Source: a virus
Lineage: Duplodnaviria > Heunggongvirae > Uroviricota > Caudoviricetes
IMG/VR virus record: IMGVR_UViG_2695420817_000007
DNA length: 18,730 nucleotides
Direction: 5' to 3' (one strand)
Under the pieces are notes generated by a model, which was not told the DNA's origin, did not search any database, and saw nothing but the letters and a program-made list of their open reading frames with translations. The position numbers were made by a program, and so were the translations under genes. Of the stretch, positions 1 through 17,735 are shown piece by piece (within the stretch, counting starts at the first letter, position 1; every line of letters starts with the position of its first letter).

Positions 1-104
1 CCCCGTCAGTAGCTGAACAGGAGGGACAGCTGATAGAAACAGAAGCCACTGGAGCACCTCAAAAACACCATCATACACTAAATCAGTAAGTTGGCAGCAT
101 CACC
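1..104 (-). mobile_element. IS1 insertion sequence, terminal 104 bp (terminal inverted repeat plus first codons of insA); rest of element lies beyond the window start
   Basis: Reverse complement of 1-104 reads GGTGATGCTGCCAACTTACTGATTTAGTGTATGATGGTGTTTTTGAGGTGCTCCAGTGGCTTCTGTTTCTATCAGCTGTCCC..., which matches the IS1 end as I recall it: 23-bp terminal inverted repeat at about 82-104, then the InsA start (GTG at about 49-47, MASVSISCPSC...). Recalled sequence, not searched. Confidence 0.8.
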
Positions 105-124: not shown

Positions 125-1363
125 TTATAAAGAATTGCTACTTTCTAATTCTGGGTTTCTGGATCTATTTTTACAACCTAAATCCGAGTGGTAATTCGGT
201 ATATCGTTTGTCAAATCTTGTTTGATAGCATTAATTAAGATCATTATGTCGAATTTATGCATATCGTCGCCCCCTTCAGACCTTAGATGTTCGGATGTGG
301 TGAGTTGAGTCGCTAATTTGCTGTTTGGCCCCCACACAATATTATTTTCGAATTTTCCTTCATGCATTCTGTTATTATATATACAGTATTGTCTAATGTT
401 TAATGCACTGGCTAAATGTACAATGGCAGTATCTACAGTTATAACAAAATCAGCATGGCGAACCAATGCAAATGAACATCCGGCATCAGAAAATGGAGAT
501 AGAGACACATTATCCAATCCATTGTGATTAATCTGTTTTCCCATATTAAAAACTATTGTGTGATATCCCTTAAGGTTATTAAGGTAAGCTAGTACTTTGT
601 TTATCTGTTCATCAGATAAGGTTCTGCTATTCTGAGAGCCATAAGGGTTAAATATAACTAATTTTTTGTTTTTCTTCCTGAATTCATTTGCAACAATATT
701 TGCTGGTTCATATATTTTGTTGTCAAAATTAAGCGCTGCAGCATAATTATTATTTTTTATCTTTAGTAAAGATAAAACTTTTTTCATTCTTTCAGATGTG
801 TGAATGGAACGATTATCGATTATATTTGTATCAAAAATAGTTACGGCAGGATGATTAAAACAGATAGAGTGTTTAGGTCTAAGTAAATGTAGTGTTTGCA
901 ATCTGGTTATCGCTGTGTTATCAAAATTTGAGAAGTCAACAACAAGATCTACATTCAGTTTTTTTATCTTTGCTTTTAGTTCGTTAAATTTATTTTTCTC
1001 GTAAGATATAAAGGCATCCACGCCAACAATATCAGTAAAGAGGAATGATACTCTTGAAGGTGCTATCACATATACCACCATACCGGATTTTTGAAGTTGT
1101 TTAATAAACCCTGAGGTAACGATGCCGTCACCAATGGCTTGCATGTGCATGAAAATGCACACTGTTTTATAACTATCCGGCTGTAATGATGTTTTCCTTC
1201 TGTATCGCATTTTTAGAAATGCCAGTCTGGCCTTCGTCTTTATCTTTTTTGTTTTAATATTTCGCTGTCTGTTAAGCTGTTTTAATGATGAAATAACATT
1301 CATAATGGTACCCTGAAATTCCAAATCACACATGTCATCCGAAATGAGCAGGGTACTATACAA
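125..1363 (-). CDS. Glycosyltransferase family 9-like protein (ADP-heptose:LPS heptosyltransferase fold) with N- and C-terminal extensions; accessory cargo gene
   Basis: ORF of 412 aa, about 30% GC against about 55% in flanking phage genes. Shows the spaced GT9 pattern by eye: KTVCIFMHMQAIGDGIV (N-terminal strand plus GD motif), KKLVIFNPYGSQNSRTLSDEQ (second Rossmann half), FVITVDTAIVHLASAL (the xDSGxxHLAAAL-type motif). Track start is a TTG; in-frame ATGs at 1333 and 1303 are more plausible starts. About 60 C-terminal residues lie beyond the GT9 core. Confidence 0.6.
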   Translation of the reverse strand: MYSTLLISDDMCDLEFQGTIMNVISSLKQLNRQRNIKTKKIKTKARLAFLKMRYRRKTSLQPDSYKTVCIFMHMQAIGDGIVTSGFIKQLQKSGMVVYVIAPSRVSFLFTDIVGVDAFISYEKNKFNELKAKIKKLNVDLVVDFSNFDNTAITRLQTLHLLRPKHSICFNHPAVTIFDTNIIDNRSIHTSERMKKVLSLLKIKNNNYAAALNFDNKIYEPANIVANEFRKKNKKLVIFNPYGSQNSRTLSDEQINKVLAYLNNLKGYHTIVFNMGKQINHNGLDNVSLSPFSDAGCSFALVRHADFVITVDTAIVHLASALNIRQYCIYNNRMHEGKFENNIVWGPNSKLATQLTTSEHLRSEGGDDMHKFDIMILINAIKQDLTNDIPNYHSDLGCKNRSRNPELESSNSL

Positions 1364-1397
1364 AAAACTGGACTACAATGGTTTGAAATGAAAGCCT

Positions 1398-1997
1398 TTA
1401 TGCTTGTTTACTCCTTGATTCCACTGGGGAAGCTGGCCACTCAATATCCGGTGCTCTTGATGTATCAACACGGTTCAGCAGCACTCGATACTTCTTCCAG
1501 GCTTCCAGCAACGAGATTTCTTCCTCCGTTGCGATTTCCAGATCTACAGCATCCTGAAGTGGCGCAATATGCTCACTGGCTACCTGCATCAGGCTGTTTT
1601 TTGTTTCTTCTGCCTCCCGGATCCGGAACAGTTTTTCTGCTTCCGTATCCTTCACCCAGGCTGTGCCGTTCCACTTCTGATATTCCCCTTCCGGCGACGA
1701 CCAGGTAACATTTTCCGGTAACGGACCGAGTTCAGAAATAAATAACGCGTCGCCGGAAGCCACGTCATAAACCGTTTTACCACGATGATCTTCAACGAGA
1801 TGCCAAGACGCCCCATCACTGTTGAAAACAGCCACGAAGCCAGCTGGAATATCTGGCGGAGCAATATCAGTACTATTTGCAGGCAGACCTGTATGAGGTG
1901 GAATGTATGCATCATCTTCACCAATAAATTCATTGGTTCCGACCAGCAGATTATAAATTTTTATGGTTCGTGGTTGTTCACTCATTCTGAATGCCAT
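1398..1997 (-). CDS. G: Tail fibre assembly protein (P2 gpG-like chaperone)
   Basis: 199-aa ORF immediately downstream of the tail fibre gene with 1-nt junction; tail fibre assembly position and size. Confidence 0.8.
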
Positions 1998-4108
1998 TAT
2001 GCAAGCCTCACAATATAGTTAAATGCGATGTTTTTTACGGTGTTTTCCGCGTTGCCATAAGCGGCAATGGTAATGGTGTGTGTGTGCGAACCAATAGCGA
2101 GCGTATGTGTATGCGCACCTATTGCTACTGTGTGAGTATGAGCTCCTGCGCTTAATACGCGATTACTTGCTGCCTTGCTTGTGTTAGTTGCATGCATTCC
2201 ACCACCGGTACCGGGAGTTTCTGCGTATGCTGAAGTATTGTTGTAAGCAAAGTTGTGTGTATGTGCTCCGGTGTTATTTGTGGATTTAGTTCCGTAATCA
2301 AACGACGATGTGGTTTTCGTCCCCAAATCCGTACTGGATGCGCTGGCGCTGTGGGTGTGCGATTTAATGCCGTCCTGTTCCTGAGACAATACGGCCCGAC
2401 CACTGGCAGGTTTGCCCTTAATCGTCCAGCCACGCATATCAGGGATCACGCCTGACGGATAAGCGACTGCAAGTTTCGGGTAGGCAGATTTGTCAAAAGT
2501 CTGCCCCTGCATCAGGGCATAACCAGACGGAACGGTATCCGATGGCCACGGGATTGGTGCGCCAGGCGGATAAAACTGCTCTGATGGCGTATAGAGTGAA
2601 TAAACTGTACCGTCCGTTAACCCTTCCGGCTTATTAGCAGAATATGCTGGTGACGTATGAATCGTCACGCTGGCATTACTGGTATAATCCCATTGAATAT
2701 TTACACCAGTCGCATAATTTCCGATTGCAACGTAAATATCGTAAGTATCACCAGATGTATTGACCCAGGCAAAATTTGTAAACCCTGCCGATGTGCGCTG
2801 CCATAAAGCACCAGTAATCCCCTTCGGATTACCATTACCTGCACGCAAAACAATTTCAGATATACCTGCCTGTTGAGGTGAACCGACGTTATATCCAGCG
2901 CCACCAATCAACGTAATTGAAACAACAGAACTCGCCTGTGGCATGGTTACCGTTGCTAATTTGAACCAACCAGCACCACCTCTGAATGACATTGTTGTTG
3001 AGTTAAGCGTACCAATATCTTTCGGTGTCAGTGTTATATCCGCTGAAAGCGCCTTACCATTCACCTTACGGGCAGAAGGTACCCGACCATTCGCATTGTC
3101 ATTAGCTGCTTTCACTGCTTTCGGTGTCGCAGCAAGCGTTTCAGATGCGCTGTTAGTCGCGCTGCTTAGCTGGACAATTCCTTTTTGTGCTGTCGTAGCG
3201 TCCTGAGCGGTATATTTCCCGTTAGCAAGGTCATAGGCTGCCTTTACCGACTTTGGCGTTGCCGCCAGCGTTTCAGACGTGCTGTTGGTGGCGCTACTGA
3301 GCTGGACAAGGCCTTTCCGCGCTGTGGTGGCATCCTGCGCAGTATATTTCCCGTTAGCAAGGTCATATGCTGCCTTTACCGCCATTGGTGTTGCCGCCAG
3401 CGTTTCTGAATCGCTGTTGGTGGCGCTACTGAGCTGGACAAGTCCTTTCCGCGCTGTAGTGGCGTCCTGTGCGGTATATTTCCCGTTAGCAAGGTCATAG
3501 GCTGCCTTGACCGCTTTCGGCGTTGCGGCCAGTGCTTCAGACGTGCTGTTGGTGGCGCTACTGAGTTGAACAAAGCCTTTTGCAGTCAGCGAGGCGTCCG
3601 GGTGACGTCGTGACTGTTCATGCTCTTTCAGTTTGTCATCCACGTAATCCACTGTGGCCATCACCATGGTGTTATCCACGGTAAGCGCCACGGTGGCCGT
3701 GCTGGATACGGTCAGAATGGTGCGAAATGTTTGTGCACGTCCGGACCCTTCGGCAACGGTTGGTTTGTAACTTTCGGCAGTATTGCCCACCGCGATTAAA
3801 TCGCCGTGCTCATCAAATACACCAATTTCCCGGATCCAGAATCCGCCCGTTTCAGGAGGAATAACCAGCTCTGCAATAATGCGGTTCTGATGTGTTGCGT
3901 CCAGGATGACGCGATTAACAGTGTGTCGCCACACCTCATGCACAAGACGGGTCTGCTTACTGTCTGGCGAGGGCAACGTGCCGCCGCCGTCACCCACGGC
4001 CATGTGAGTCAGGCGGACCGGTTTACCATCTGGTGTGGCTGCCTGCGCTAATTTTTTTTCACCCGTATCGGTGATAACGGTTTTAAATTTTCGTGTTGTG
4101 GTACTCAT
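1997..4108 (-). CDS. H: Tail fibre protein (P2 gpH-like) with internal tandem repeats and His-rich C-terminal tip
   Basis: 703 aa. N-terminus (MAVGDGGG...HEVWRH...[10 protein letters not shown]...GGFWIRE...AESYKP...[18 protein letters not shown]) matches the conserved gpH N-terminal domain as I recall it. Central 44-aa tandem repeats and C-terminal HTH/HxH repeats are visible. Confidence 0.9.
3089..3595 (-). repeat. About 3.7 tandem copies of a 132-bp (44-aa) repeat inside the tail fibre gene
   Basis: Protein repeat KG(F/L/I)[37 protein letters not shown](R/Q) at aa 177-220, 221-264, 265-308, partial 309-340. The same periodicity shows on the plus strand as repeated antisense ORF peptides ([27 protein letters not shown]). 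Confidence 0.85.
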
Positions 4109-4110
4109 GC

Positions 4111-4641
4111 TTAATCGTCCGGATAAATGGTAATGACTTCACCGTCGTAAGTTGCTGCCGCCGCGAAAATATCCCCCGGAATTTCCTGAATGATATTCAG
4201 CCCTGTCATGTGGCGGCTGACCGGGCGGGCATCAGCAATCAACCGCTCCATTTCCAGATACATTTCCTCCGTCACGCCACTGTCCAGCGTGCCGACTTCA
4301 ACGGTAAATGTTCCCGGTTCTCCGCCGAACTCCCACCACTCAGACACGCGAATGAGGTATCCCAGCGGCTCAATGGCCCGGCGCAGTGCGCTGATGGTTC
4401 CTTTGTGTCGGTGTATCAGCCATGCATCACGAATCACCTGTCGCTTTGTCTCTTCCGGCCAGTTGCGATCCCAGCGGTCAACGGAAAATGCCCAGGCGAG
4501 ATAAGGCAGCAGATGCACCGGGCAGGTGTCCGGTGACCACAGCGTGTTGAGGTCTACCGGGATGTCTGTAATGCGCGCTCCGACAGCTTCGGCGCAACGC
4601 ATGAAATTGCTGGCTGATGGCGGTAACAGTGAATTACTCAT
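4111..4641 (-). CDS. I: Tail/baseplate protein I (P2 gpI-like)
   Basis: Track ORF 4111-4674; likely true start is the internal Met ([10 protein letters not shown]...) at 4641, giving 176 aa. Conserved [15 protein letters not shown] and [12 protein letters not shown] segments match gpI as recalled. Confidence 0.85.
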
Positions 4642-5530
4642 TACGCCCACCTTCGCTGATGGTGAATGACTCACAGCGCGCCGCCTGTATGTCGCTGATG
4701 GCCATATTCTGTGTGGGTTCGATTATCTCCACGCGTTGCACACCGTGCACATGCAGTGCGGCAGCAATGGCGGACAACGCCACGTCCTGACCGATAAGCC
4801 CCTGCTCAGCCAGCCACTTCCTGAACGACGATTCAGCTGCGGCCAGAATAGGTTCGGATTCCGGGCCGGGGTAAAAGTACAGTTTTGCATTCAGCCGCCA
4901 TGTCACGATTCTGGCGCTCTGTACCGTCAGGCGGTCGGCCACCGGGCGGGTATCCTCTGCATTCAGAACGGCGCGAACGGTATTAAGCAACGCCTCCGTT
5001 GCTGTGCCGTCGCCTTCAGTGGACAGGATGGAAACCGTCACATTGGCCGGAGACGGACTGATAGCCCGCGCATCACGCACCAGACCGCTGGCGCTGCGGG
5101 CAAAATACTCGTATGCACCTGACGGGCCAGCAACACTCAGGCCGTCGTACGCCCGCTGCGCCCGCAGTCTAAGCGAGGTGTCGCTCTCCATCACCGCGTC
5201 GGTGGTATCCGTTGCCGGAGTGATAACCAGGCGCTTTGTGTTCATATTGCCCGCGAGGTTGTCCAGGTCTGTCCCGGCGCTGTGGCTTAACATGCAGGCG
5301 CGTGCACCCTCATTGACCCGCTGGCGTAACAGCATTTCACGAAACGCTGTTGTCTGGGCGATAACGTTAAGGGGTTCCGATTCCAGCTCCAGCGCGGCGG
5401 AAACGGCTTCACGCTGTTCGGCGGGATAGGACGCAATCATCATGGCTTTTGTGTCAGCCAGAATTGCTTCAAAGTCAGGCTCCGCGATGATGGCGGGTTC
5501 CGGTAACTGGGAAAGGTCAACGGCGGGCAT
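4634..5530 (-). CDS. J: Baseplate assembly protein J (P2 gpJ-like)
   Basis: 298 aa; MPAVDLSQLPEP start, RVTVQSA and HVHGVQRVE segments match gpJ; correct position between W and I. Confidence 0.9.
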   Translation of the reverse strand: MPAVDLSQLPEPAIIAEPDFEAILADTKAMMIASYPAEQREAVSAALELESEPLNVIAQTTAFREMLLRQRVNEGARACMLSHSAGTDLDNLAGNMNTKRLVITPATDTTDAVMESDTSLRLRAQRAYDGLSVAGPSGAYEYFARSASGLVRDARAISPSPANVTVSILSTEGDGTATEALLNTVRAVLNAEDTRPVADRLTVQSARIVTWRLNAKLYFYPGPESEPILAAAESSFRKWLAEQGLIGQDVALSAIAAALHVHGVQRVEIIEPTQNMAISDIQAARCESFTISEGGRNE

Positions 5531-5533
5531 GAT

Positions 5534-5884
5534 TTACTCCCTCAGCGTGATGGTTAATTCAACATTCTGCATGGTCTGCATGACAGTGCCCGACAGCGTC
5601 ACCCCGGCGCGGCCTCCTGCCTTCCAGACAACGTCGATGGCGTCCAGGGCAATGCGGGGTTCCCATCGTGTCAGTGCAATCACGGCAGCACTCATGCATT
5701 GCAGACGCGTGGTGTTATTCATGGGTTCGTCAATCAAATCAGGCAAAAGGCTGCCATATTCCCGTCGCATAACCCGGCTTGCCAGCGGGGTGGTCAGGAT
5801 GTCCCTGACTGACTGTTTCAGGTGCTCCATATCGTTCAGGTTTCCCGTCCCGTCCGGGTTCATTCCTGTGTAGCGGGTTGTCAC
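5534..5884 (-). CDS. W: Baseplate protein W (GPW/gp25 family)
   Basis: 116 aa; size and position between V and J; lysozyme-like gp25 family pattern. Confidence 0.85.
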   Translation of the reverse strand: MTTRYTGMNPDGTGNLNDMEHLKQSVRDILTTPLASRVMRREYGSLLPDLIDEPMNNTTRLQCMSAAVIALTRWEPRIALDAIDVVWKAGGRAGVTLSGTVMQTMQNVELTITLRE

Positions 5885-6462
5885 TGCGGGCCTCCTGTCG
5901 AATCGCTGCCACCTTTAACGCCACCGTGCTTATGTGTATGCACTGTGATGCCGTTTGAGGTGAAATTGCCGCCGCTGTGCGTGATATTGCCGCTCATCTT
6001 TCCCCCTTTTGTGACGTCAAGCGTCGCCGTTCTCAGAAGGTTTGTGCATTCCACGACGGGCGTGTCCAGTGTCACGCTGACGGATGCCTGCAGGCTGGCT
6101 GTTTTCATGCCGCTGGCGCTCAGTGCGCCTGCGTCCGCGTCGTAGCGGAACACCGCGCCATCCGGCGCGCTGACCACGATTTCTTTCAGGCTTTTGCCGG
6201 GGGCCGGACTGGCATCACTCCACAGGCTGCCAATTATCATGGCGGTTTCCGGGTTGCCGCCGATGCAGGCAATGACCACCTGTTCGCCGGGTGATGGCGG
6301 CAGCCACACATTGAAGGCTCCCGCGCGCGTGGTGTTCCAGCGTAACCAGCCTGTTTCCAGTTCGCCGCTGCGAACGCGCACGCACCAGGACTTCTCATCA
6401 ACTTCAGAGATGATCCCGGTGCGGATGACATTGCTCAGCAGTCGCATGAGTTCTGCGCTCAC
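5881..6462 (-). CDS. V: Baseplate assembly protein V (spike)
   Basis: 193 aa; gpV-like N-terminus (IRTGIISEVD...) and Gly-rich C-terminus; 4-nt overlap with W. Confidence 0.85.
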   Translation of the reverse strand: MSAELMRLLSNVIRTGIISEVDEKSWCVRVRSGELETGWLRWNTTRAGAFNVWLPPSPGEQVVIACIGGNPETAMIIGSLWSDASPAPGKSLKEIVVSAPDGAVFRYDADAGALSASGMKTASLQASVSVTLDTPVVECTNLLRTATLDVTKGGKMSGNITHSGGNFTSNGITVHTHKHGGVKGGSDSTGGPQ

Positions 6463-7103
6463 CGTACAGCCTCCGCAATCCGGCCCAGCACCGTGTTATA
6501 AATCAGGCGCTCATCTGCCTGGCTGATACCCAGCAGCTCACGTACCGGGTAATCGGTGAAAATGCCCGGCGCAACCTGATCGCGCTCACCGAACTGATGA
6601 ACGCGTGCAATACGTGCGGCCACGCCGCTGTAACCCACCGTCACACCGGAAGCATCTGCACGGGTTTTCAGGTAGCGGGCGGTGCGCAGTTTTACGAACA
6701 TGGGGACGCGCCTGGTGCTGTCCTGGTTGATGCGCCGGGTGCGTATTTCCAGAAAACGGTCGATGTCATCCCGGTAAAACGTGCGGATATTGTTTTTATC
6801 CTCATCCCACCCGGTAATGGTTCGCCCGTATTTCCCCGTGTCGTGATGCCAGTTTTTCAGCGTGCGTGCTTCGTTATTCCAGATAAAGCGAATGCGTTCC
6901 TGTATCCGGGTTACGCGGCGTCTGCGTGGTGTCCACGCGGTCCCGTCCGGCGCTTTCTGTGACCGGATACGCGCCTGCTGGGCGCGGCGTAAATCCTGTG
7001 CCAGCTTTCTGGCGATGTTATTGATGGCCTGCTGATTCAGGCTGTCGCGGATGGCCTCAAAGGTTTCATCCACGCGGGTGAATGCCTTATCCATCGCTTT
7101 CAC
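6459..7103 (-). CDS. S: Virion morphogenesis / tail completion protein (P2 gpS-like)
   Basis: 214 aa in the S position between R and V; basic Arg-rich protein typical of this family; longer than P2 gpS. Confidence 0.7.
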   Translation of the reverse strand: MKAMDKAFTRVDETFEAIRDSLNQQAINNIARKLAQDLRRAQQARIRSQKAPDGTAWTPRRRRVTRIQERIRFIWNNEARTLKNWHHDTGKYGRTITGWDEDKNNIRTFYRDDIDRFLEIRTRRINQDSTRRVPMFVKLRTARYLKTRADASGVTVGYSGVAARIARVHQFGERDQVAPGIFTDYPVRELLGISQADERLIYNTVLGRIAEAVR

Positions 7104-7554
7104 CCCACGTCACATCCTGGAATACATGCGACCAGTCGCCTTCGGAAGAGGGCAGACGGGGTTTTGGCTCCGGCAGGTGTTCTGCCTGCGGTGTGCCCTG
7201 ACTGTTGCGCGTGATGCGAACGCGTTCCCGCAGGGGGAGCGTAAACAGGAGGTCGGCGCTGTCATCGTCATTGATAACGGCGGAGAATTTGATGTCCTGA
7301 TTACGCTCAGGGTTGAGCAGCAACTGTGGCTGATTTTCGGATAACCACGCCAGCAGCGGCAGCGTGAGGTCATCCAGCTCCCCGGCGTAATCCATGACAA
7401 ACATCACCATCTGATAGCGGTAAACAAACGAGGGCGTTTCTCCGGTCGTTTCAATGTTGCCGCTCTCCACGAAAATGGTGAATTTTTCCGGGTTGGCCTG
7501 ACACCATCGGCATGAACGGGTCATGGCTTCACGCAGGGAATCAGTTTTCAGCAT
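7087..7554 (-). CDS. R: Tail completion protein R (P2 gpR-like)
   Basis: 155 aa, same length as P2 gpR; N-terminus MLKTDSLREA...NPEKFTIFVESGNIE resembles gpR (MLKPDSLRRA...). Confidence 0.85.
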   Translation of the reverse strand: MLKTDSLREAMTRSCRWCQANPEKFTIFVESGNIETTGETPSFVYRYQMVMFVMDYAGELDDLTLPLLAWLSENQPQLLLNPERNQDIKFSAVINDDDSADLLFTLPLRERVRITRNSQGTPQAEHLPEPKPRLPSSEGDWSHVFQDVTWGESDG

Positions 7555-7831
7555 GGTTGTTGTCCTCGTTGTTCAGTCGTTGCAGCCTGCGCTGTTCCAG
7601 TAATTCAATGGCCCGTTTATCCGCGTTACAGGTTTCCAGTGCATCCAGAAGGCGGTCGCCCCATATACCGAGATTTCCCCATGTGGGAGTGTCAGGGAAG
7701 GGGGGAGGCGTTACCGGTATGGTCAGCGTCTGCGGTATAAGCCGGACTGACGGCGCTGGCCGTGGCGCGTTCTGCGTGCCTGCGCAACCTGTCAGTAAAA
7801 CGAGCGTCAGGCAAAGCGTGGGCGCATTCAT
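7541..7831 (-). CDS. lysC: Rz1-like outer-membrane lipoprotein spanin (LysC-like), out of frame over the 3' end of lysB and running into the R start
   Basis: Signal peptide with lipobox MNAPTLCLTLVLLTGC followed by a Pro-rich segment; track ORF 7541-7861, start taken at the second Met (7831). Confidence 0.7.
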   Translation of the reverse strand: MNAPTLCLTLVLLTGCAGTQNAPRPAPSVRLIPQTLTIPVTPPPFPDTPTWGNLGIWGDRLLDALETCNADKRAIELLEQRRLQRLNNEDNNHAEN

Positions 7832-8099
7832 CTTTTGCAATATCGTTGCGTAGCTGTTCACGTCTGGCCTCTCCGTCCTGATTGCGTTGCTGATTTTCCG
7901 CGCGGAGTTGTGCCAGCACCTGCTGCATATCCTGTACCCCGGCGCTGATGATATTCAGGGTGTCGACGGTACTTTTCAGGGTGCTGGCCTGCGCTTCGTT
8001 TCTGGCGTTCTCCCGGCCCAGTGACCACGACAGACGCATGGATGCTCCCCAGGCGGCAATCAGAAGAAAAGCGACGCCCAGCGTGGGCCAGAGCTTCAT
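7692..8099 (-). CDS. lysB: Rz-like inner-membrane spanin (LysB-like)
   Basis: Track ORF 7692-8243 has an implausible extension overlapping the endolysin gene. The internal Met at 8099 (MKLWPTLGVAFLLIAAWGASM...) gives an N-terminal transmembrane helix then a coiled-coil-like segment (QQVLAQLRAENQQRNQ). Its ATG overlaps the endolysin stop (ATGA). Confidence 0.75.
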   Translation of the reverse strand: MKLWPTLGVAFLLIAAWGASMRLSWSLGRENARNEAQASTLKSTVDTLNIISAGVQDMQQVLAQLRAENQQRNQDGEARREQLRNDIAKDECAHALPDARFTDRLRRHAERATASAVSPAYTADADHTGNASPLP

Positions 8100-8488
8100 G
8101 CCGGATAAACTCCGTGCGGTAACTGAAAATGCGGTCCGTCTTTCAGGGTCTTCCAGTCGCCGCCCCATTCCACCGGAATATTCAGTTCCCGGCTGGCCTG
8201 TCTGAATGCTGCTGCGATTTTTTCGTACAGCGGCCATTCCCATGACACCTGGCTGCCGACATAAGCCACAACATCCACGGCATGCCCCGTAAGGTGGCGG
8301 CTGTTCATGGTCTGGCTCTTACCCGTGGCCACAAGTTGCTTCTGGCGGTAACGGCTGCGCAACCCTTCGGTGATACCAAAATCCACTTCCGAAATTTCCA
8401 GTGCCCGTCGGGTCACTTTCACCAGCTCAGGATTTACGCCCTGCAAATTCTTTTCGCTCCGGCTGCTGAATTTAAATGTGTTGCTCAT
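8096..8488 (-). CDS. Endolysin, peptidase M15 family (L-alanyl-D-glutamate / D-Ala-D-Ala peptidase type)
   Basis: 130 aa; contains the zinc-binding signature SRHLTGHAVD (SxHxxGxAxD); sits between holin and spanins. Confidence 0.85.
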   Translation of the reverse strand: MSNTFKFSSRSEKNLQGVNPELVKVTRRALEISEVDFGITEGLRSRYRQKQLVATGKSQTMNSRHLTGHAVDVVAYVGSQVSWEWPLYEKIAAAFRQASRELNIPVEWGGDWKTLKDGPHFQLPHGVYPA

Positions 8489-8808
8489 TCGTCCTTCTCC
8501 TTCACCCTGCGATTAAAGGCCGCAATAACCTTGTCGCGTGCTTTCTCTGCCCCCATAAAACCGATTGATGCGCCGATAAACGTCACGGCATCTTCAGGAA
8601 AACCGAAGAAGCGCAACGACCCGGCCACGGCCATGGCGAGAACGCCGCACGCCAGCGATCCCGTTACGGTCTGAACCAGTGTTCGTCCGTCATAAAGACT
8701 CATCAGCGCGGAAATGCTGACCGCCGCGCCTGCTGCATACACCGTTGGCAGGTGGTCAAAGAGCCATGCAATAACCTGCTCTGTGATCCCTGTTTGAATG
8801 GTGTTCAC
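8485..8808 (-). CDS. Holin (putative), GTG start
   Basis: Track ORF 8485-9027 has a long improbable N-terminal extension overlapping gene X. A GTG at about 8808, preceded by GGGGGAG, gives a 107-aa membrane protein with hydrophobic segments (VYAAGAAVSISALMSLY, GSLACGVLAMAVAGSL) and a charged C-tail, directly upstream of the endolysin. Confidence 0.65.
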   Translation of the reverse strand: MNTIQTGITEQVIAWLFDHLPTVYAAGAAVSISALMSLYDGRTLVQTVTGSLACGVLAMAVAGSLRFFGFPEDAVTFIGASIGFMGAEKARDKVIAAFNRRVKEKDE

Positions 8809-8810
8809 TG

Positions 8811-9011
8811 CTACTCCCCCCACAACTGAATCATTTCTCGTTTCTTCTTCTCCGGCTCCGGCATCTCCACGTCCTGCCCGGCGTCCAGAAATACCTGCTG
8901 ACAGAGTCCGGGGTTGGCATCCAGCACCTTTTCGGTGACGCCCTGCGTCGTGCCGTAGTACCGGAAACAGAGCGAATCCACGGTGTCGCCTTCCAGTGCC
9001 TTCACTTTCAT
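8811..9011 (-). CDS. X: Tail protein X (P2 gpX-like)
   Basis: 66 aa from the internal Met MKVKALEGDTVDSLCFRYYGTTQGVTEKVLDANPGL..., closely resembling P2 gpX (MKTFALQGDTLDAICVRYYGRTEGVVETVLAANPGL). Confidence 0.85.
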   Translation of the reverse strand: MKVKALEGDTVDSLCFRYYGTTQGVTEKVLDANPGLCQQVFLDAGQDVEMPEPEKKKREMIQLWGE

Positions 9012-9514
9012 CAGCACAACTCCGCAAAGATTCGCGGGCGGCACAGAATGTCAGAGATGGCCCAGCTCACATCGCGCCACAAATCTGATGTCTGTATATC
9101 CAGTGCGTCCGCCCGGCGGTCGCCCTTGTCCGTTGTGTCCGCATCGCGGTAACGCTCCAGAATCAGGGCGCGTGTGGCGGTATAAACAGCATTGCGCCAG
9201 TGCCAGAGATTGACGCTTTCTCCGTTAATTACGGGTGCCGGAACATCGGCCAGCGTCTGATGGCCAGCCGCCTGCTGTTCCTGCTGCCATGCTTCCAGCT
9301 CGCGGGTAACGTGAGCCACCGCCCCGGTGGCGGTATGCAGCAGGCGGGAGGTGGTCACACGGCCCGGCAGTCGTACCGCCAGACGCAGCTCACGCAGCAC
9401 AATATCCGGCCAGAATGCGCCCGCTGAAATACGGGTATCACCATCATCGGTATCGGTGATGTCGTCCTCTGCGGGTCCGGGGTTGGTTCTGGCAACCATA
9501 CTCATGGGGTTCAC
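9011..9514 (-). CDS. L: Head completion/stabilisation protein L
   Basis: 167 aa in the L position between M and X; acidic N-terminus and family-typical length. Confidence 0.8.
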   Translation of the reverse strand: MNPMSMVARTNPGPAEDDITDTDDGDTRISAGAFWPDIVLRELRLAVRLPGRVTTSRLLHTATGAVAHVTRELEAWQQEQQAAGHQTLADVPAPVINGESVNLWHWRNAVYTATRALILERYRDADTTDKGDRRADALDIQTSDLWRDVSWAISDILCRPRIFAELC

Positions 9515-9528
9515 TCCTGAAAAAAATC

Positions 9529-9600
9529 GGGCGGTGGGTGCGCGGTGTAAACGGTCACGGAGTCAAACCGGAACACCGCGCACGCCGCCCGCTGACGGGG
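9529..9600 (-). terminator. Long imperfect hairpin followed by a T-run on the minus strand, between M and L (terminator or attenuator candidate)
   Basis: Arms at about 9537-9557 (cgggcggtgggtgcgcggtgt) and 9582-9600 (acaccgcgcacgccgcccg) are near-complementary. On the minus strand the stem is followed by ATTTTTTTC and then the L ribosome-binding site (GGAGTG) and ATG. Confidence 0.4.
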
Positions 9601-9607
9601 TCAGTCG

Positions 9608-10408
9608 TTAACCGCGCTTCGCCTTCTGCGTCGCGGTGGTTTTTCGTGTTGCAGGCTTCCGCGTTGTCTTTTTACTTTTGCTGCTTTCGTCCTGCGCCTG
9701 CTGTGCGCTGGCGTCTTCTGGTGCGGCTGCGGAATCGGCTTTTTTCAGGGCGCGGGAAAGGGTTGCAATCTCGCGTTTCACACCTGCGTTCGGGTTCAGG
9801 TGCATTGCTTCGCGCAGCAGCTTCAGTGACAGTGCCATGCTGTCCGCATCGCTCAGGCCACGGCGGGCAAAGGCGCACGCCTTGCATAATTTGGCGCGCA
9901 CTTCGTCCGGCATGTCCTGGTCGGTGACAATCTCCCGGAGGGTATCCAGTGGTTCGATAAAGGCGGACAAATCCGCGTCGGCATCCGTCCCGGCCTGCGT
10001 CAGTACCGGGTTGCAGATTTCTTCGGTCAGCACTGTGGCAGCAGTACGGCCAAAGTTATCCGGCATAATGAGGTTATGACGGACCACATACGCACCAATA
10101 CGCAACGCCAGCGGAAGATCGCCGCAGTCAATCGCCCACACCATCAGCGTGGCAATCACTTCATCCTGCTGCCCGCCGTCAGCCTCCAGCGTTCCCTCAA
10201 TCCAGCCGGAAAAATCCGGCAACAACTCTTTTTTGATGGCGGCTTTCGCGCTTCTGGCCTGTACGCCCTTAAGCCGGGCCTGTGCCAGACGCAGACGATA
10301 CAGCACCTCTTCATGCGCGGTACGCGCGGCGTGGTCCACGCCTTCATTCGCCCGGCCTGCGCGCTGTGCCATCACGTTCTGCCAGTGTTGCTGTGCAGGA
10401 GTAATCAT
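9608..10408 (-). CDS. M: Terminase endonuclease (small) subunit M
   Basis: 266 aa; position between N and L; size and N-terminus (MITPAQQHWQNV...) consistent with P2 gpM. Confidence 0.85.
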   Translation of the reverse strand: MITPAQQHWQNVMAQRAGRANEGVDHAARTAHEEVLYRLRLAQARLKGVQARSAKAAIKKELLPDFSGWIEGTLEADGGQQDEVIATLMVWAIDCGDLPLALRIGAYVVRHNLIMPDNFGRTAATVLTEEICNPVLTQAGTDADADLSAFIEPLDTLREIVTDQDMPDEVRAKLCKACAFARRGLSDADSMALSLKLLREAMHLNPNAGVKREIATLSRALKKADSAAAPEDASAQQAQDESSKSKKTTRKPATRKTTATQKAKRG

Positions 10409-10425
10409 TGTTTCTCTCCGTTACA

Positions 10426-10444
10426 GGCGGGCATGATGCCCGCC
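10426..10444. other. Short GC-rich palindrome between N stop and M start
   Basis: ggcgggc-atgat-gcccgcc; no T-run on either strand, so not a canonical terminator. Confidence 0.3.
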
Positions 10445-10453
10445 GTGAGTTGA

Positions 10454-11506
10454 TTAGCTGTCGGCGAACTTCAGGCCAGTGACCATCGCGCACTTGCCAT
10501 AGTCTTCAACGACATAAGCGTCATTGATGGACTGGTAGGTGGCGATGCGGTTGTATTCCGGCTCGTCTTTCATCAGGCGACGCATTGAACCTTTCTGCCA
10601 GTAAATCGACAGGTTGTTGAACGAGGTGATCAGCATCGTTGCATCCGGGAAGAACGGCGCAAGGAACACACCCAGCCCGCCAATGGTGCGCGATGACAGG
10701 ATGAGCTGCCCGGCGAGTAATTCCGCATTGGGATTCTGGCCGCTGATGCTGTTCAGCACGGGCAGACGCAGCGAGTTAAACAGGTTGCGCCCCATAATCA
10801 CCACGAGGTCGTCAGCTTCCTTGTGCCATTCATCCAGCAGGGATGAGCGTGCGTCCTGAACCAGTGCATCAGCATTCGCATACTTACCCGCGTGCGCCAC
10901 GGTGTTGTCCATGTTGCGGGAGGTCAGCGTCACGTCATTCATTACGCGCGCGCTGGCATTGGTTCTGATGTGCTCCAGCCACCCCACGTTAACGTCCTGA
11001 AGCAGCTTGTTGGTGCTGAAGTTGGATTTTTCCGCGTGTGACGTGCCGTTAAAGCCGATCATGATGCGGTCAAGCGCCACCTGTCGGGCAATCTGTGCGC
11101 TGATGCGGGTCTGGAAGTCATTGTGCGCCGCCCAGGCATCAAGCTGCGGATACGAAATAAACGTGTCGTAGTTCACCTGCTCACACTGGTACTGACGGGA
11201 CTTCAGGTCGACAGCGTTAATCGGGTTGCGGCGATCTGTGCCGTCATAACTGGTATTTGTGCGCGCAATCGGCCCGGTGGTGTCCATGAGGACTTTTTCG
11301 CCTTTCTGGTCGGTCACACCGATCACGTTAATTTTTTTTGTAAGTTCGGTGCTATCCTTTGAGGCGTTTTCAAAACGCTGCTGCACCGCGGGTTCCACGG
11401 TAAATCGCGATACCAGTCCAGAAACCGGGATATTGTTAATCGACGCCTGTCGCGTCATGTAGCAGCCCAGCTTGTTACGGGCATTATCTGACATCACCAG
11501 ATTCAT
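10454..11506 (-). CDS. N: Major capsid protein N (P2 family)
   Basis: 350 aa; size and position after scaffold O. Confidence 0.9.
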   Translation of the reverse strand: MNLVMSDNARNKLGCYMTRQASINNIPVSGLVSRFTVEPAVQQRFENASKDSTELTKKINVIGVTDQKGEKVLMDTTGPIARTNTSYDGTDRRNPINAVDLKSRQYQCEQVNYDTFISYPQLDAWAAHNDFQTRISAQIARQVALDRIMIGFNGTSHAEKSNFSTNKLLQDVNVGWLEHIRTNASARVMNDVTLTSRNMDNTVAHAGKYANADALVQDARSSLLDEWHKEADDLVVIMGRNLFNSLRLPVLNSISGQNPNAELLAGQLILSSRTIGGLGVFLAPFFPDATMLITSFNNLSIYWQKGSMRRLMKDEPEYNRIATYQSINDAYVVEDYGKCAMVTGLKFADS

Positions 11507-11529
11507 AAAAAATTTGCTCCTTTGTCTTA

Positions 11530-12366
11530 TCAGAAGTCAGCCAGCTGGTCGGAGGCTGCGCCCGTTGCGGTGAACCGGTTCTGCGGATCGCCGTCCTGCG
11601 TGCGCAGTTTTTCCTTCAGTGCTGTCAGCTCTGTGGTCAGCGAAGTGATTTTCTGGCTGTCCTGCTGATGGTGGGTTTCCAGTGCATTAAAACGGTCGAT
11701 AATGTCGGCCTGTGATGTTGCGACACCTTCCACCGCTTCCTGAATACGGGAGAAACTGGCGTCATCCGCTTTGCGGCCACGGCCAATAATCCCCATAACG
11801 CGGTTAAACCACTGGGTGCCTTCTTCCTGACGTTGTTCGGTGAGTTCGATAAGTTCTGACTCCATAGCGGCGGTAAACATCGCCACGTCTCCCTGCTGAC
11901 AGTTGAATGTCATCAGTTGCATACGTTGTTGTGCCGCAAAGGCCAGACGTTCCGTGCCCAGGCTGGCGGGGGTGTCGGTCATTGCCAGCCCGCGCAGGTA
12001 AGGGCCTCCCGTGATGGTTGACTGTGGTTCCAGCTCAATACTGGAGTAAATTTTTTTACCATCGTTAAGCAGGGACATCATGCGAGCGGTCGGCTCAATT
12101 TCGGCATACAGTGCCGTGCGGCCTGCCAGCGGGCCATCGGTTATGTCTTCGGTGCTCAACCCCACAACATCGCCCATAGCGGAAAACTCGCTGCCGGGGA
12201 GTGGTGACAGGATGTGCTCAATATTCACACGTGCACCATAAACGGACGGGTTATAACTGGTGGCGGCAGCTTTCAGCATGTCGCCGTTGATTTCGCGCCC
12301 GTCTGCCGTCACACCGGAGACAGCCACGCGAAACTTTTTGCGGGATGTCTTTTTTTCATTAGTCAT
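11530..12366 (-). CDS. O: Capsid scaffolding protein O
   Basis: Track ORF 11530-12399. The second ATG (12366) is preceded by GAGGGG at good spacing; the first ATG has no ribosome-binding site. N-terminus FRVAVSGVTADGREINGDMLKAAATSYNPSVYGARVNIEHI resembles gpO (FRIGVEGDTCDGRVISAQDIQEMAETFDPRVYGCRINLEH). Confidence 0.9.
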   Translation of the reverse strand: MTNEKKTSRKKFRVAVSGVTADGREINGDMLKAAATSYNPSVYGARVNIEHILSPLPGSEFSAMGDVVGLSTEDITDGPLAGRTALYAEIEPTARMMSLLNDGKKIYSSIELEPQSTITGGPYLRGLAMTDTPASLGTERLAFAAQQRMQLMTFNCQQGDVAMFTAAMESELIELTEQRQEEGTQWFNRVMGIIGRGRKADDASFSRIQEAVEGVATSQADIIDRFNALETHHQQDSQKITSLTTELTALKEKLRTQDGDPQNRFTATGAASDQLADF

Positions 12367-12399
12367 AGTTTTTGCCCCTCTGACTGGTTCTTCAGTCAT

Positions 12400-12520
12400 G
12401 ATGGCAAAGCGTAACAGGCTGATACAAAGGGCTTTTGTTGTAAGAAAACGGCCAGAACAGGGGGTTAAGGAGAACGGTTTCGCGCGCGGGTAATCTTCCT
12501 GTAATTACTCAGGGGGAGCA
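12400..12520. promoter_or_regulatory. Divergent intergenic region between O and P; expected site of the divergent late promoters
   Basis: 121-bp gap between divergent operons, with GGGGGAG ahead of the P ATG. I could not identify a convincing TGT-N12-ACA activator site by eye. Confidence 0.35.
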
Positions 12521-14272
12521 ATGATTCAGGACGCTTTTGTGCGCCAGCGTGCGCGGCAACTTTACTGGCAGGGTTATCCGCCCGCAGAAATATCACGTCT
12601 GATGGGAATAAACCCGAACACGATTTATGCGTGGAAAAAACGCGACCAGTGGGATGAAACACCACCCGTGCAGCGTGTCACGCAGTCCATCGATGCGCGC
12701 CTCATCCAGCTTACTGAAAAACAGAATAAAACAGGTGGTGACTTCAAGGAAATAGACCTGCTGACCCGGCAGCTTAAAAAACTGCATGATGGCCAGCCGG
12801 ATGCGACGGCCACAGGAAAGAAAAGCCGGGCGAAAAAACTCAAAAATCATTTCACGCCGGAACAGATTGCCGCACTGCGGGAAAAAATCATCAGCAGGCT
12901 GGAGTGGCATCAGCGGGGCTGGTTTGACTCTCTGACCCTTTGCAGGGAAGCCGGGATACGTAACAGGATGATCCTGAAATCCCGACAGATTGGAGCGACA
13001 TGGTATTTTGCACAGGAAGCACTGCTGATGGCGCTGCGTGACGATGTGGCGCAACCTTACCAGCGTAACCAGATTTTTTTGTCTGCGTCGCGTCGTCAGG
13101 CGTTCCAGTTTAAAAGCATTATTCAGAAGGCTGCATCTGAAGTTGATGTGGAGCTGAAAGGGGGCGATAAAATCATCCTCTCCAACGGCGCAGAGCTGCA
13201 TTTTCTTGGTACTTCTGCTGCGACGGCACAGTCCTACACGGGCAATTTTTATTTTGATGAATTTTTCTGGGTCAGTCGCTTTGCTGAACTGCGCAAGGTG
13301 GCTGGCGCTATGGCAACCCTCAGCGGACTGCGGCGCACCTACTTCTCCACGCCATCCACCGAAACGCACGAGGCATACGCCTACTGGAACGGCGACCGCT
13401 GGAACGAGAAAAAGGCCACGCATAAACGCCAGCGTTTTTCTGTTGACTGGAAAACGCTGCATAACGGGCTTATCTGCCCTGACCGGACGTGGCGGCAAAT
13501 TGTCACGCTGGAAGATGTGGTTAATCACGGCTGGAAACACACCGATATCGACGAAATTCGTGATGAAAACACCGAAGACGAGTTCCTCAATCTCTATATG
13601 TGTGAGTTTGTCCGCGAAGGGGAATCGGCATTTAACCTGAATATCCTGATTGGCTGCGGTGTTGACGGATACGACGACTGGAAAGACTGGAAACCTTTTG
13701 CTCCCCGCCCGATGGGGAATCGTCCGGTATGGATTGGGTATGACGCAAACGGCAGCAGTGGCAACGGCGACAGCGGCGCTGTGTCCGTGGTGGTTCCTCC
13801 GGCTGTTCCTGGTGGCCGTTTTCGAACGGTGGAGACGCGACGCGTTCAGGGGCTGGAGTTTGAAGAACAGGCCAGAGTCATTGAAGAGTTCACGTGTCGC
13901 TACAACGTGGAACACATCGGCATTGATGTGACGGGCGGGAACGGGGAGGCTGTTTATCAGATAGTGAAGCGGTTTTTCCCTGCTGCTATTCCGTACACCT
14001 TCACGCTGTCATCCAAACGGTCGCTGGTACTGAAAATGCTGCAAATAATGCGTGCCGGACGGTGGGAATACGATCGCGCCGAACGCGAGCTGGTCGCGGC
14101 CTTTAACGCCGTGCGTAAGGTGAAAACACCGGGCGGCTTTATCACTTACGAAACGGACCGCGCGAGGGGGATCAGCCACGGCGACCTTGCGTGGGCAACC
14201 ATGCTTGCTGTCATTAACGAACCAATTGGCGGCGAAGGAGAAAACGAGCGTTTCACGGTTATGGAGTTCTGA
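12521..14272 (+). CDS. P: Terminase ATPase (large) subunit P
   Basis: 583 aa; Walker A-like KSRQIGATWYF; size and position match P2 gpP. Confidence 0.9.
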   Translation: MIQDAFVRQRARQLYWQGYPPAEISRLMGINPNTIYAWKKRDQWDETPPVQRVTQSIDARLIQLTEKQNKTGGDFKEIDLLTRQLKKLHDGQPDATATGKKSRAKKLKNHFTPEQIAALREKIISRLEWHQRGWFDSLTLCREAGIRNRMILKSRQIGATWYFAQEALLMALRDDVAQPYQRNQIFLSASRRQAFQFKSIIQKAASEVDVELKGGDKIILSNGAELHFLGTSAATAQSYTGNFYFDEFFWVSRFAELRKVAGAMATLSGLRRTYFSTPSTETHEAYAYWNGDRWNEKKATHKRQRFSVDWKTLHNGLICPDRTWRQIVTLEDVVNHGWKHTDIDEIRDENTEDEFLNLYMCEFVREGESAFNLNILIGCGVDGYDDWKDWKPFAPRPMGNRPVWIGYDANGSSGNGDSGAVSVVVPPAVPGGRFRTVETRRVQGLEFEEQARVIEEFTCRYNVEHIGIDVTGGNGEAVYQIVKRFFPAAIPYTFTLSSKRSLVLKMLQIMRAGRWEYDRAERELVAAFNAVRKVKTPGGFITYETDRARGISHGDLAWATMLAVINEPIGGEGENERFTVMEF

Positions 14273-15318
14273 TGAGCAGAAAAAATAAAAAAGTGCGCAT
14301 GAGTTCACGCATTGATCTCGCTGATGCGCTCAGGAAAGAATCATCGCTCAGTGCATTCACATTTGATGGTCCTTATCGCCTGACCGGGCATGACCTGCTG
14401 GACAATATGTACTGTGCTGATAACGGGCGGTGGTATGAAACCCCGGTGGACTGGTACGGTCTGGCAAGAGCCGCCCGGCAAACGTCCTGGCATCAGTCTG
14501 CGCTTTACTTTAAGCGCAATGTATTGCTCGGTTGCTACATCCCGCACCCGCTGCTTTCCCGGCAGGATTTCTCGGCGCTGGCGCTGGACTGGTTTGTGTT
14601 CGGTAACGCATTCCTTGAGCTTCGGAGTAATATGCTCGGCGAACCACTTAAATTACGGCACGCACTGGCGAAATACGTGCGACGCGGAAGCGATCTTGAA
14701 TCATGGTGGTATGTGCAGGATGGCAAGGACGCGTTTCAGTTTCGCCCTGGCAAAGTGTGCCACCTGATGAATCCGGACATTAACCAGGAAATTTACGGCA
14801 TGCCGGAATATCTTGGCGCATTACTCTCGGCCAGCCTGTCTCATTCGGCGGACATGTTCAGAAAACTGTATTACGACAACGGATCCCACGCCGGGTGCAT
14901 CATCTACATCGGTGCAGCGCAGGTAAACCGCGAAAGCATGGACTCCCTGAAAGAAACGCTACAGGGGGCACGTGGTGGTGGTGCGTTTAAAAACGTGCTC
15001 ATTCATGCGCCCAACGGGGGCAAAGAGGGGGTGCAAATTTTGCCGTTCCAGCAGATCACCGCAAAGGATGAGTTCATGAATGTTAAGGCGGCATCCCGTG
15101 ATGATGTGCTGGCTGCGCACCGCGTTCCGCCGCAACTGATGGGGGCGATGCCGGGCGAAAAAAGTGCGTTTGGTGATGTGGAGAAGGCCGCGCGGGTTTA
15201 CGCAATTAACGAGCTGATGCCCGTCATGGAGGCCATGAAGCACATCAATGACTGGCTTGGCGAAGAGGTGATCCGCTTTAACCCTTACGCACTGTTAGAT
15301 ACCCAGCCCACATCCTGA
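14272..15318 (+). CDS. Q: Portal protein Q
   Basis: 348 aa; start overlaps the P stop (TGATG); size and position match P2 gpQ. Confidence 0.9.
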   Translation: MSRKNKKVRMSSRIDLADALRKESSLSAFTFDGPYRLTGHDLLDNMYCADNGRWYETPVDWYGLARAARQTSWHQSALYFKRNVLLGCYIPHPLLSRQDFSALALDWFVFGNAFLELRSNMLGEPLKLRHALAKYVRRGSDLESWWYVQDGKDAFQFRPGKVCHLMNPDINQEIYGMPEYLGALLSASLSHSADMFRKLYYDNGSHAGCIIYIGAAQVNRESMDSLKETLQGARGGGAFKNVLIHAPNGGKEGVQILPFQQITAKDEFMNVKAASRDDVLAAHRVPPQLMGAMPGEKSAFGDVEKAARVYAINELMPVMEAMKHINDWLGEEVIRFNPYALLDTQPTS

Positions 15319-16459: not shown

Positions 16460-16771
16460 TTACTCAGGAAATAACGCCCGGATATTCCCAGCCATCTGGC
16501 TGGTTATCTTAGCCACTGGTGCAGACTGTGCTTCAAACTTTTTTGAGCTGATTTGTGTCACAGGTAACATCTCATCATCAGCCCATGCGGCCAGTCGGTA
16601 AGCCTCTGCCGGATTCGTCTTCAGAAGTGCCAGCCCGGCCAGAAAAGCCACGCGTTGGCCGCTTTTGCGGGCTTCTGGTGTAAGGCTGTCCAGCCAGGCG
16701 CATGCTTCTCCTTCGTTCTTGACGGCAGCTGGCTTCAGATAGAAACTTATTCTTCTGGTTGGTGTCGTCAT
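16460..16771 (-). CDS. parR: ParR-like centromere-binding adaptor (type II partition)
   Basis: 103 aa; N-terminal segment RRISFYLKPA...AWLDSLTPEARKSGQRVAFLAGLAL parallels R1 ParR/StbB (RRTIAFKLNPD...DTLDSIPQGERSRLNRAALTAGLAL) as recalled; directly downstream of parM. Confidence 0.75.
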   Translation of the reverse strand: MTTPTRRISFYLKPAAVKNEGEACAWLDSLTPEARKSGQRVAFLAGLALLKTNPAEAYRLAAWADDEMLPVTQISSKKFEAQSAPVAKITSQMAGNIRALFPE

Positions 16772-16775
16772 TGGT

Positions 16776-17735
16776 TTACTCCTTGTTCATTGCGTACAGC
16801 CCATTAACCAGAGCAAATTGTGGCACTCCGTCCGCGATGAAAGTCGCATTAACTCCGCAGGCTTCGCGGATAGCGGGTGCCACAATCTCCGCCCCGCCAC
16901 CGACAACCATCACCCGCCCGTAACCCGAAAAAACCGCCAGCGCGCGGATCACGCGTTGTTTCAGTGTTTCTTCCTTTTCACGAATAACCGCCATCAGGCT
17001 GGCGTAATGCGCGTCATTGTGGATGTGCTGGCGCAGCCAGGCTTCATCATGGCGATGTTCGATAATGGTATTGGCGATGTGGTGACTGGTGCGCATACCG
17101 TTAGTGGCCATCACCGACAGTACGGCATCGGCCATCAGGGAAACGCCTACGTGTGGATCGCAAAACACCTGGCTGATACCTGCCAGTTGTCCCTGAACCT
17201 TTGCCACATCCAGCGTGGTTCCGCCTAAATCCACAATCAGCAGGGATTCAAACGGACTCATGTCAGCCAGTGCTTTAAAACCAGCCGGAATGGATTCAGG
17301 CATAACCCGTACGTTACGGATAGTGAATGCTTTTCCGTTCTGGTACGCCACCGGGCGCATGACGTTTGCTTTTTTGCGGTTGATGTTGGCCATGTCCGGC
17401 TGTGCGTTTGTGTCGAAATATTCGCTCAGTGGCAGGGTGACAACCACATCCACTTCCTGTGGTGTGATGCCTGATTTGACCAGCGCGTGATGAATGGCAA
17501 TGACATTCACATCGCTGTACTGGTATTGCGTGTCGGTCGTCTGGACAAAGCGATCGCTGACCGGATCAAAACCATAGCGCACGCCATCAAGCATGTAGTT
17601 CGCGGGCTGCGTGCCACCGAACGGCGCAGACCATTCCGACTTGAAGCTGTTCGGGCTGATGGCGTTGCGGCGTTCGCCGTTCTCAGTCCATGCCAGCTTG
17701 ATGTTGGTGGAGCCGTCATCGATACAAATTTTCAT
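16776..17735 (-). CDS. parM: ParM-like actin-family segregation ATPase (type II partition)
   Basis: 319 aa; N-terminal phosphate-1 motif MKICIDDGSTNIKLAW (R1 ParM: MLVFIDDGSTNIKLQW); further matches YSDVNVIAIHHAL, VMPESIPAG, LIVDLGGTTLD, GVSL, FSGY..V.VVGGGAEI, LVNGLY. Confidence 0.9.
   Translation of the reverse strand: MKICIDDGSTNIKLAWTENGERRNAISPNSFKSEWSAPFGGTQPANYMLDGVRYGFDPVSDRFVQTTDTQYQYSDVNVIAIHHALVKSGITPQEVDVVVTLPLSEYFDTNAQPDMANINRKKANVMRPVAYQNGKAFTIRNVRVMPESIPAGFKALADMSPFESLLIVDLGGTTLDVAKVQGQLAGISQVFCDPHVGVSLMADAVLSVMATNGMRTSHHIANTIIEHRHDEAWLRQHIHNDAHYASLMAVIREKEETLKQRVIRALAVFSGYGRVMVVGGGAEIVAPAIREACGVNATFIADGVPQFALVNGLYAMNKE

Follow-up and report, generated by a model that had tools for sequence, protein, structure and literature searches.

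Within an 18,730-nucleotide stretch of DNA from a virus of the class Caudoviricetes (IMG/VR record IMGVR_UViG_2695420817_000007, hereafter the window), corresponding to the late region of a P2-like prophage and read on its minus strand, we analysed a gene encoding a WaaU-like glycosyltransferase of CAZy family GT9 (392 residues; positions 125..1303, minus strand, opening at an ATG with MNVISS and closing with a stop codon at 125-127). On the basis of sequence comparison, the protein is a member of the WaaU-like (heptosyltransferase IV) clade. It is probably a prophage-captured transferase with a GT-B fold, cytoplasmic and membrane-associated, that modifies the outer core of the lysogen's lipopolysaccharide (LPS), in other words an agent of lysogenic conversion.

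Membership in GT9 follows from the agreement of profile, fold and motifs. The Pfam profile PF01075 (Glyco_transf_9) matched above its gathering cutoff (26.9 against 22 bits, E = 3.7e-6), over residues 206-312 only, and 20 of the 34 homologue clusters have precomputed matches to the same profile. A strong match (806 bits) was also obtained with PHROG 36326, a family of unknown function. An AlphaFold2 model computed from the alignment of the 34 homologue sequences (mean predicted local distance difference test, pLDDT, 90.1; predicted TM-score, pTM, 0.86) displayed the two Rossmann domains of a GT-B fold and lay nearest to solved GT9 structures: the top Foldseek matches in the Protein Data Bank (PDB) were 3TOV, WaaC and WaaF, all of GT9, and PNSB1, a plant NDH subunit of related fold (E = 5e-14 to 3e-9), with other GT-B families appearing only at 6e-7 or worse. 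In alignment with WaaC, WaaF, WaaQ and WaaU of Escherichia coli K-12, residues G58-D59, R172, D291 and H296 are invariant, and G58, D59, D291 and H296 are invariant across the 34 family members too. The codons of G58-D59 (1127..1132, minus strand) are equivalent to the G12-D13 catalytic-base motif of WaaC, in which D13 has the catalytic role. Those of D291-T-A-I-V-H296 (416..433, minus strand) form the GT9 donor-binding motif D(T/S)xxxH, and this stretch aligns with WaaC residues 235-279, D261 included. The preliminary description of the window, which had proposed a GT9-like protein with heptosyltransferase-type motifs, is borne out on these points, including the profile match.

The nearest characterised relative is WaaU. 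BLASTP against the K-12 enzyme gave 23% identity over 334 residues (E = 3e-17), compared with E = 3e-4 for WaaQ, 3e-4 for WaaC and 5e-3 for WaaF, and a hidden Markov model (HMM) of the family scored WaaU at 118 bits, WaaQ at 23, WaaC at 15 and WaaF at 9. The full-length homology to WaaU is therefore clearly stronger than to other GT9 enzymes, as expected for a member of its clade, although the window copy is prophage cargo located outside any waa operon. In the K-12 outer core, WaaU attaches the fourth heptose to the third glucose (PMC4483631). The analogy initially drawn with WaaC and WaaF of the inner core was thus the wrong comparison, the relative being an outer-core enzyme.

The N-terminal segment, too, is shared with WaaU. 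A long basic helix is predicted at residues 2-33, NRQRNIKTKKIKTKARLAFLKMRYRRK (1205..1300, minus strand; pLDDT 83-89), and the first 38 residues hold 14 lysines or arginines and neither aspartate nor glutamate. N11, R12, N15, K19, K22 and R35 are nearly invariant in the 34 homologues. The alignment with WaaU opens at residue 24 and therefore covers the N-terminal segment. When the family profile was run against 1.84 billion representative proteins, there were 118 matches with E <= 1e-30, rising to 748 with E <= 1e-10; the majority begin at the first profile positions, so the helix can be counted among the features of the WaaU-like clade. The segment had been described as absent from housekeeping enzymes of the WaaC/WaaF type: it is real, conserved and absent from WaaC, WaaF and WaaQ, but present in the chromosomal WaaU of K-12. 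The C-terminal extension of roughly 60 residues reported alongside it did not withstand modelling, as the GT-B fold runs to its usual terminal helix at 353-365, the WaaU alignment reaches residue ~340, and only residues 371-392 (128..193, minus strand; pLDDT below 50) are disordered. This disordered tail measures 22-27 residues; the last ~25 residues of the protein are specific to the E. coli lineage and absent from homologues of other genera.

The maximal uninterrupted open reading frame (ORF) spans 125-1363 on the minus strand and opens at a TTG, but the methionine at 1303 is the start common to all 34 homologue clusters and to the RefSeq protein WP_001100987.1, and the TTG start was rejected on this ground. 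A start at residue 52, where the PHROG profile begins, would remove the first beta-strand and was rejected as well. The gene has a GC content of 33.1% (29.5% at third codon positions, GC3), against 47.7% in the neighbouring tail-fibre assembly gene G, 50.8% in the tail-fibre gene H and 55.2% over region 1398-15318, and the dip is limited to the gene and its short flanks. The AT-rich reading frame first delimited at 125-1363 after G is therefore intact and its GC dip genuine, the true coding sequence being the shorter 125-1303. The recent acquisition that had been deduced from this dip is not upheld: K-12 waaU itself has 31% GC, so that low GC is a trait of the WaaU-like clade rather than the mark of a recent arrival, and the prophage gene has diverged by up to 4% (synonymous divergence, dS, 0.08) and persists in heavily decayed prophages.

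The genomic neighbourhoods of the homologues outside E. coli prophages provide the main argument for the substrate. One homologue with 55% identity (P0009) lies inside a waa cluster with the order WaaL, GT9, WaaG-like, WaaP-like, GT4, GT8, GT8, homologue, WaaA, CoaD. Two others (P0027 and P0029) and a Citrobacter copy are located at the asmA/galF head of O-antigen clusters; P0029 (46% identity; locus L099, 4258-9089) adjoins a GT2 gene and an extra Wzy_C/WaaL-like ligase in its cluster, a neighbourhood suggestive of a connection between O-antigen attachment sites and the WaaU-like clade. In Orbus and Gilliamella, the copies are found among GT8, GT2, GT9 and phosphoethanolamine-transferase (Ept)-like genes, and P0019 adjoins a GT25 gene. 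Other homologues are carried by prophages. Those of Providencia stuartii and Providencia alcalifaciens belong to E217-like myovirus prophages, where they lie at the end nearest the fibre, the P. stuartii copy immediately following the fibre and tail-fibre assembly protein (TAP) genes. A Providencia rettgeri copy is found behind the TAP gene of a prophage whose baseplate is of Mu type; it is paired with a GT2 gene, and an integrase comes next. One further prophage contig has its homologue after the portal gene. Prophage homologues thus follow tail-fibre assembly (Caudo_TAP) genes on at least three myovirus backbones, with P2-like, E217-like and Mu-like tails. This joint distribution over waa, lipooligosaccharide (LOS) and O-antigen clusters and over prophages argues that the substrate is LPS and that prophages have captured such genes repeatedly. 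The LPS-directed role put forward in the preliminary description is, given these chromosomal homologues, the best-supported reading.

P. rettgeri also carries an orphan copy without surrounding phage genes (locus L098, 7275-11464), just past acpS and a ferredoxin-like gene. Both this copy and the decayed one of E. coli strain L6-21 (locus L003, 6081-10199) lie in the tadA-mltF-purL neighbourhood, which suggests a common region of prophage integration.

Within E. coli, the gene was carried by 49 of 5426 complete genomes and was always chromosomal, and for 46 of the 49 carriers the annotation under the match includes a tail-fibre assembly gene; elsewhere among the carriers, G is replaced by IS2 in two and the GT9 gene itself is interrupted in one. 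In the window it is the next gene past G, on the same strand as G and H, and comparison with the gene order of P2 supports the placement first given to it, as cargo directly after G at the P2 fun(Z) position. The accompanying statement that the slot lies between G and the sheath operon is not confirmed by the window: one side adjoins G, but on the far side are the end of an IS1 in the window and the 3' end of U in all 15 related loci. Of these 15 E. coli loci, 14 read H, G, GT9, followed by U convergent on the opposite strand, T, E, FII and FI, and the 15th keeps the same convergent arrangement with only a fragment of U left. In phage P2 itself, H and G are followed by fun(Z), which lies on the opposite strand, and by FI to D in the orientation of H and G, from which we conclude that the FI-U block (the F operon) was inverted in the carrier lineage. 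The inverted FI-FII-E-T-U block was observed in loci L001 (1082-9199), L002, L004 and L067-L080, with gpD on the other strand and split; no convincing inverted repeats bounding the inversion were found.

The carrier prophages are mostly defective, the prophage being degraded in all four of the RefSeq carrier genomes examined, but the gene is preserved. All 15 E. coli loci examined retain it as an intact ORF, with a ratio of nonsynonymous to synonymous substitution rates (dN/dS) of 0.1-0.3, and in strain L6-21 it remains intact though only fragments of U and G are left beside it. The intact ORF and constrained substitution, even in decayed prophages, argue for selection at the level of the host and against both a pseudogene and, with dS up to 0.08, a very recent arrival. 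The disrupted pseudogene that would have undone the first interpretation is accordingly not what the sequence contains.

According to the mechanism that we propose, the enzyme would add a single sugar, most likely L-glycero-D-manno-heptose from ADP-heptose, to a distal residue of the lipid A-core, on the cytoplasmic side of the inner membrane and prior to export. The enzyme may be kept at the anionic membrane or at its acceptor by the basic N-terminal helix. A changed outer core would in turn alter phage receptors and possibly the site or occurrence of O-antigen ligation, and phages dependent on the unmodified core, perhaps with the prophage's own kind among them, could be kept from infecting the lysogen. 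Superinfection exclusion or phage defence by this gene, raised in the preliminary description, stands as a hypothesis; a search against the defence models of PADLOC-DB 2.0 gave no family match at E <= 1.

As a further and rather doubtful extension, the gene may be the receptor-masking part of a mobile module made of a fibre tip, an assembly chaperone and a transferase, whose three genes would travel jointly among unrelated myovirus backbones (those with P2-like, E217-like and Mu-like tails). Each phage would then bring along a transferase that removes the LPS epitope bound by its own fibre, and the host would keep this gene after decay of the phage. The evidence for such a module is no more than suggestive. 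The TAP of P. stuartii (locus L005, 9281-11107) is 43% identical to G of the window over its full length, the collar region of the fibres is 32% identical and the transferases 52%.

Several results weigh against outer-core modification by a phage-borne enzyme. At the sequence level the similarity to GT9 is weak, since a profile search against PDB sequences reached E = 0.07 only, and the NCBIfam scores fall far below their equivalog cutoffs, both for RfaQ (NF007742, 24.6 bits against 467) and for heptosyltransferase I (TIGR02193, 22.9 bits against 185.3), so that the gene is not an orthologue of WaaQ or WaaC. Identity to WaaU is just 23%, and the donor and acceptor could therefore differ. The inverted F operon and the mostly defective prophages mean that the benefit may be the host's rather than that of an active phage. 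Isolated phage relatives of the gene were not found by megablast, and tblastn returned only two unannotated "Campylobacter phage" records of ~174 kb (MG065691.1 and MG065686.1), whose WaaU-like ORF is 23% identical over residues 24-339, the same range as in the alignment with K-12 WaaU. Lastly, a consensus scan upstream of the gene on its own strand identified no convincing sigma-70 promoter that could be active in the lysogen.

The last of these results also bears on the best surviving alternative, an inert passenger, to which we give a low probability: a gene from an AT-rich donor would simply ride with the tail-fibre module, with no acceptor or no expression in E. coli. The lack of a clear promoter upstream would fit such a passenger, as would the mostly defective and rearranged state of the carrier prophages and the rarity of the gene (49 of 5426 genomes), but the reading is at odds with the ORF intact in all 15 loci, the dN/dS of 0.1-0.3, the retention of the gene where adjacent phage genes are pseudogenes or deleted, and the invariant catalytic residues. 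The G-GT9 intergenic leader (1304..1397, minus strand) holds no predicted terminator between the two genes. A possible hairpin at 1304-1355 (minus strand), with a GUACCCUG/CAGGGUAC stem, pairs the AGGG Shine-Dalgarno of the GT9 gene, but it is not significant relative to shuffled sequences (z = -1.2). The upstream regions of nine homologues do not align, and neither promoter, leader nor hairpin is conserved among them.

Slightly less probable still is a switch of the O-antigen attachment site, in which the added residue makes or removes the site used by WaaL; whether the cell is smooth or rough, its serum resistance or its colonisation would then be chiefly affected, and not the exclusion of phages. 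Heptose IV is the O-antigen attachment site in K-12. WaaU adds this terminal heptose of the K-12 outer core (PMC4483631), and two homologues are in suitable company, P0029 beside its extra WaaL-like ligase and P0009 in a waa cluster with WaaL; there is, on the other side, no ligase alongside the E. coli prophage copy. Such a switch overlaps with outer-core modification rather than excluding it.

It is improbable that the enzyme is a protein heptosyltransferase similar to TibC or Aah, which would transfer heptose from ADP-heptose onto an autotransporter or onto the adjacent tail fibre: the fold ranking and the chromosomal contexts of the homologues disfavour this, the BAHT enzymes TibC and Aah being structurally clearly more distant than the GT9 enzymes of LPS, and no autotransporter partner is encoded nearby. 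Finally, an intracellular anti-phage defence acting on incoming phage components rather than on LPS is very unlikely, for although the gene occupies the slot where P2 has its T5-blocking fun(Z) and hotspots of P2-like phages are rich in defence genes (PMC9122126), the hotspot of that study is the gpA-gpQ locus and not the slot after G, no PADLOC model matched, and fold and family context indicate LPS assembly.

The remainder of the window is organised as follows. Pfam profiles identified, on the minus strand, L (9011-9514), a holin (8485-9027), an endolysin (8096-8488), R (7087-7554), S (6459-7103), the tail-fibre gene H (1997-4108; Phage_tail_fib, four Phage_fiber_2 and Collar domains) and, directly upstream of the GT9 gene, G (1398-1997; Caudo_TAP, PF02413, E = 1.1e-43). 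From their position and the gene order of P2, O, N and M are tentatively placed at 9608-12399, V, W, J and I at 4111-6462, and P and Q at 12521-15318 on the plus strand. A plasmid-partition pair, ParM (319 residues) and a StbB/ParR-like protein (103 residues), is encoded at 16460-17735 on the minus strand, in the variable region near cos that lies past the portal gene Q. The four Phage_fiber_2 repeats of H are in tandem, of ~42 residues each, the first near residue 173. The distal part of H together with G (window 1398-2300) shares ~91% DNA identity with the stfR/tfaR and tfaQ modules of lambdoid cryptic prophages and is present in ~5000 of 5426 E. coli genomes, the fibre tip being a widely shared mosaic module. 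Because this fibre-tip and TAP module is common to lambdoid prophages, G and H are unusable as probes for the slot in sister P2-like prophages.

At the other side of the GT9 gene, positions 1..104 are the outer end of an IS1 copy, 20 bp beyond the stop codon. This segment matches at thousands of places in E. coli genomes, and the sole record in which the aligned part is annotated names an "IS1A family transposase". Homology to the other carriers of the GT9 gene begins at position 105, and the IS1-GT9 junction of the window has no match in complete RefSeq E. coli genomes. Truncation or alteration of the GT9 gene by IS1 was considered and rejected, the element stopping short of the coding sequence and the protein being identical to IS1-free copies.

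As an annotation, the family is already present in databases: the RefSeq product name is that of a GT9 protein, and GT9 annotations of uncultured phages exist too. In the full-text literature, by contrast, no paper was found that deals with this protein or with a WaaU-like enzyme borne by a prophage, nor any characterised core-type GT9 enzyme carried by a prophage, and the view that a single GT9-like gene in this slot is undescribed agrees with the absence of any such report in that search. The study of P2 hotspots by Rousset 2022 (PMC9122126) analysed the gpA-gpQ locus and not the slot after G, leaving glycosyltransferases unmentioned, and the NAR 2026 paper on P2/P4 hotspots mentions neither glycosyltransferases nor LPS.

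If outer-core modification is correct, temperate phages would have, in E. coli and Providencia, a simple one-gene route to change core-dependent receptors and perhaps also the site of O-antigen ligation. The survival of the GT9 gene beyond its prophage would then be explained, and the WaaU-like branch of GT9, so far poorly characterised, would become more accessible. These implications are relevant to phage host-range prediction and to phage therapy, where core type serves as a predictor.

Remodelling of LPS by prophages is well known for O-antigens, through the Gtr, Oac and Wzy/Iap systems. GtrABC carries out glucosylation and Oac O-acetylation, and all of these systems act on the O-antigen, mostly in the periplasm. 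Like GtrABC, Oac and Wzy/Iap, the GT9 gene is an accessory gene of a prophage and is predicted to change the lysogen's LPS, hence its phage receptors or serotype. Unlike it, those systems are directed at the O-antigen and have other folds, whereas the present gene encodes a single cytoplasmic core-type enzyme of GT-B fold. With fun(Z) of P2, which its annotation describes as a non-essential gene of lysogenic conversion blocking T5, the GT9 gene shares its position just past G and the end of the V operon, but the proteins are unrelated and the orientations differ, fun(Z) being on the strand opposite to G and the GT9 gene on that of G. WaaC, WaaF and WaaQ lack the N-terminal helix, and their sequence similarity to the prophage enzyme is confined to the donor motif. 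By contrast, K-12 WaaU (RfaK, a putative ADP-heptose:LPS heptosyltransferase IV) has in common with it the GT9 fold with the G-D and D-T-x-x-x-H motifs, the same extension ahead of the first Rossmann strand and, past the motif, the same insertion (IYNNR...NNIVWGPN compared with FYPNS...HLIWSPN), as well as a low GC content (31% compared with 33% in the prophage gene), and relatives of the prophage gene hold the equivalent late position in waa clusters. The prophage enzyme is set apart from WaaU by its identity of 23%, its carriage on a prophage, a far more basic N-terminal helix and a disordered tail of ~25 residues.

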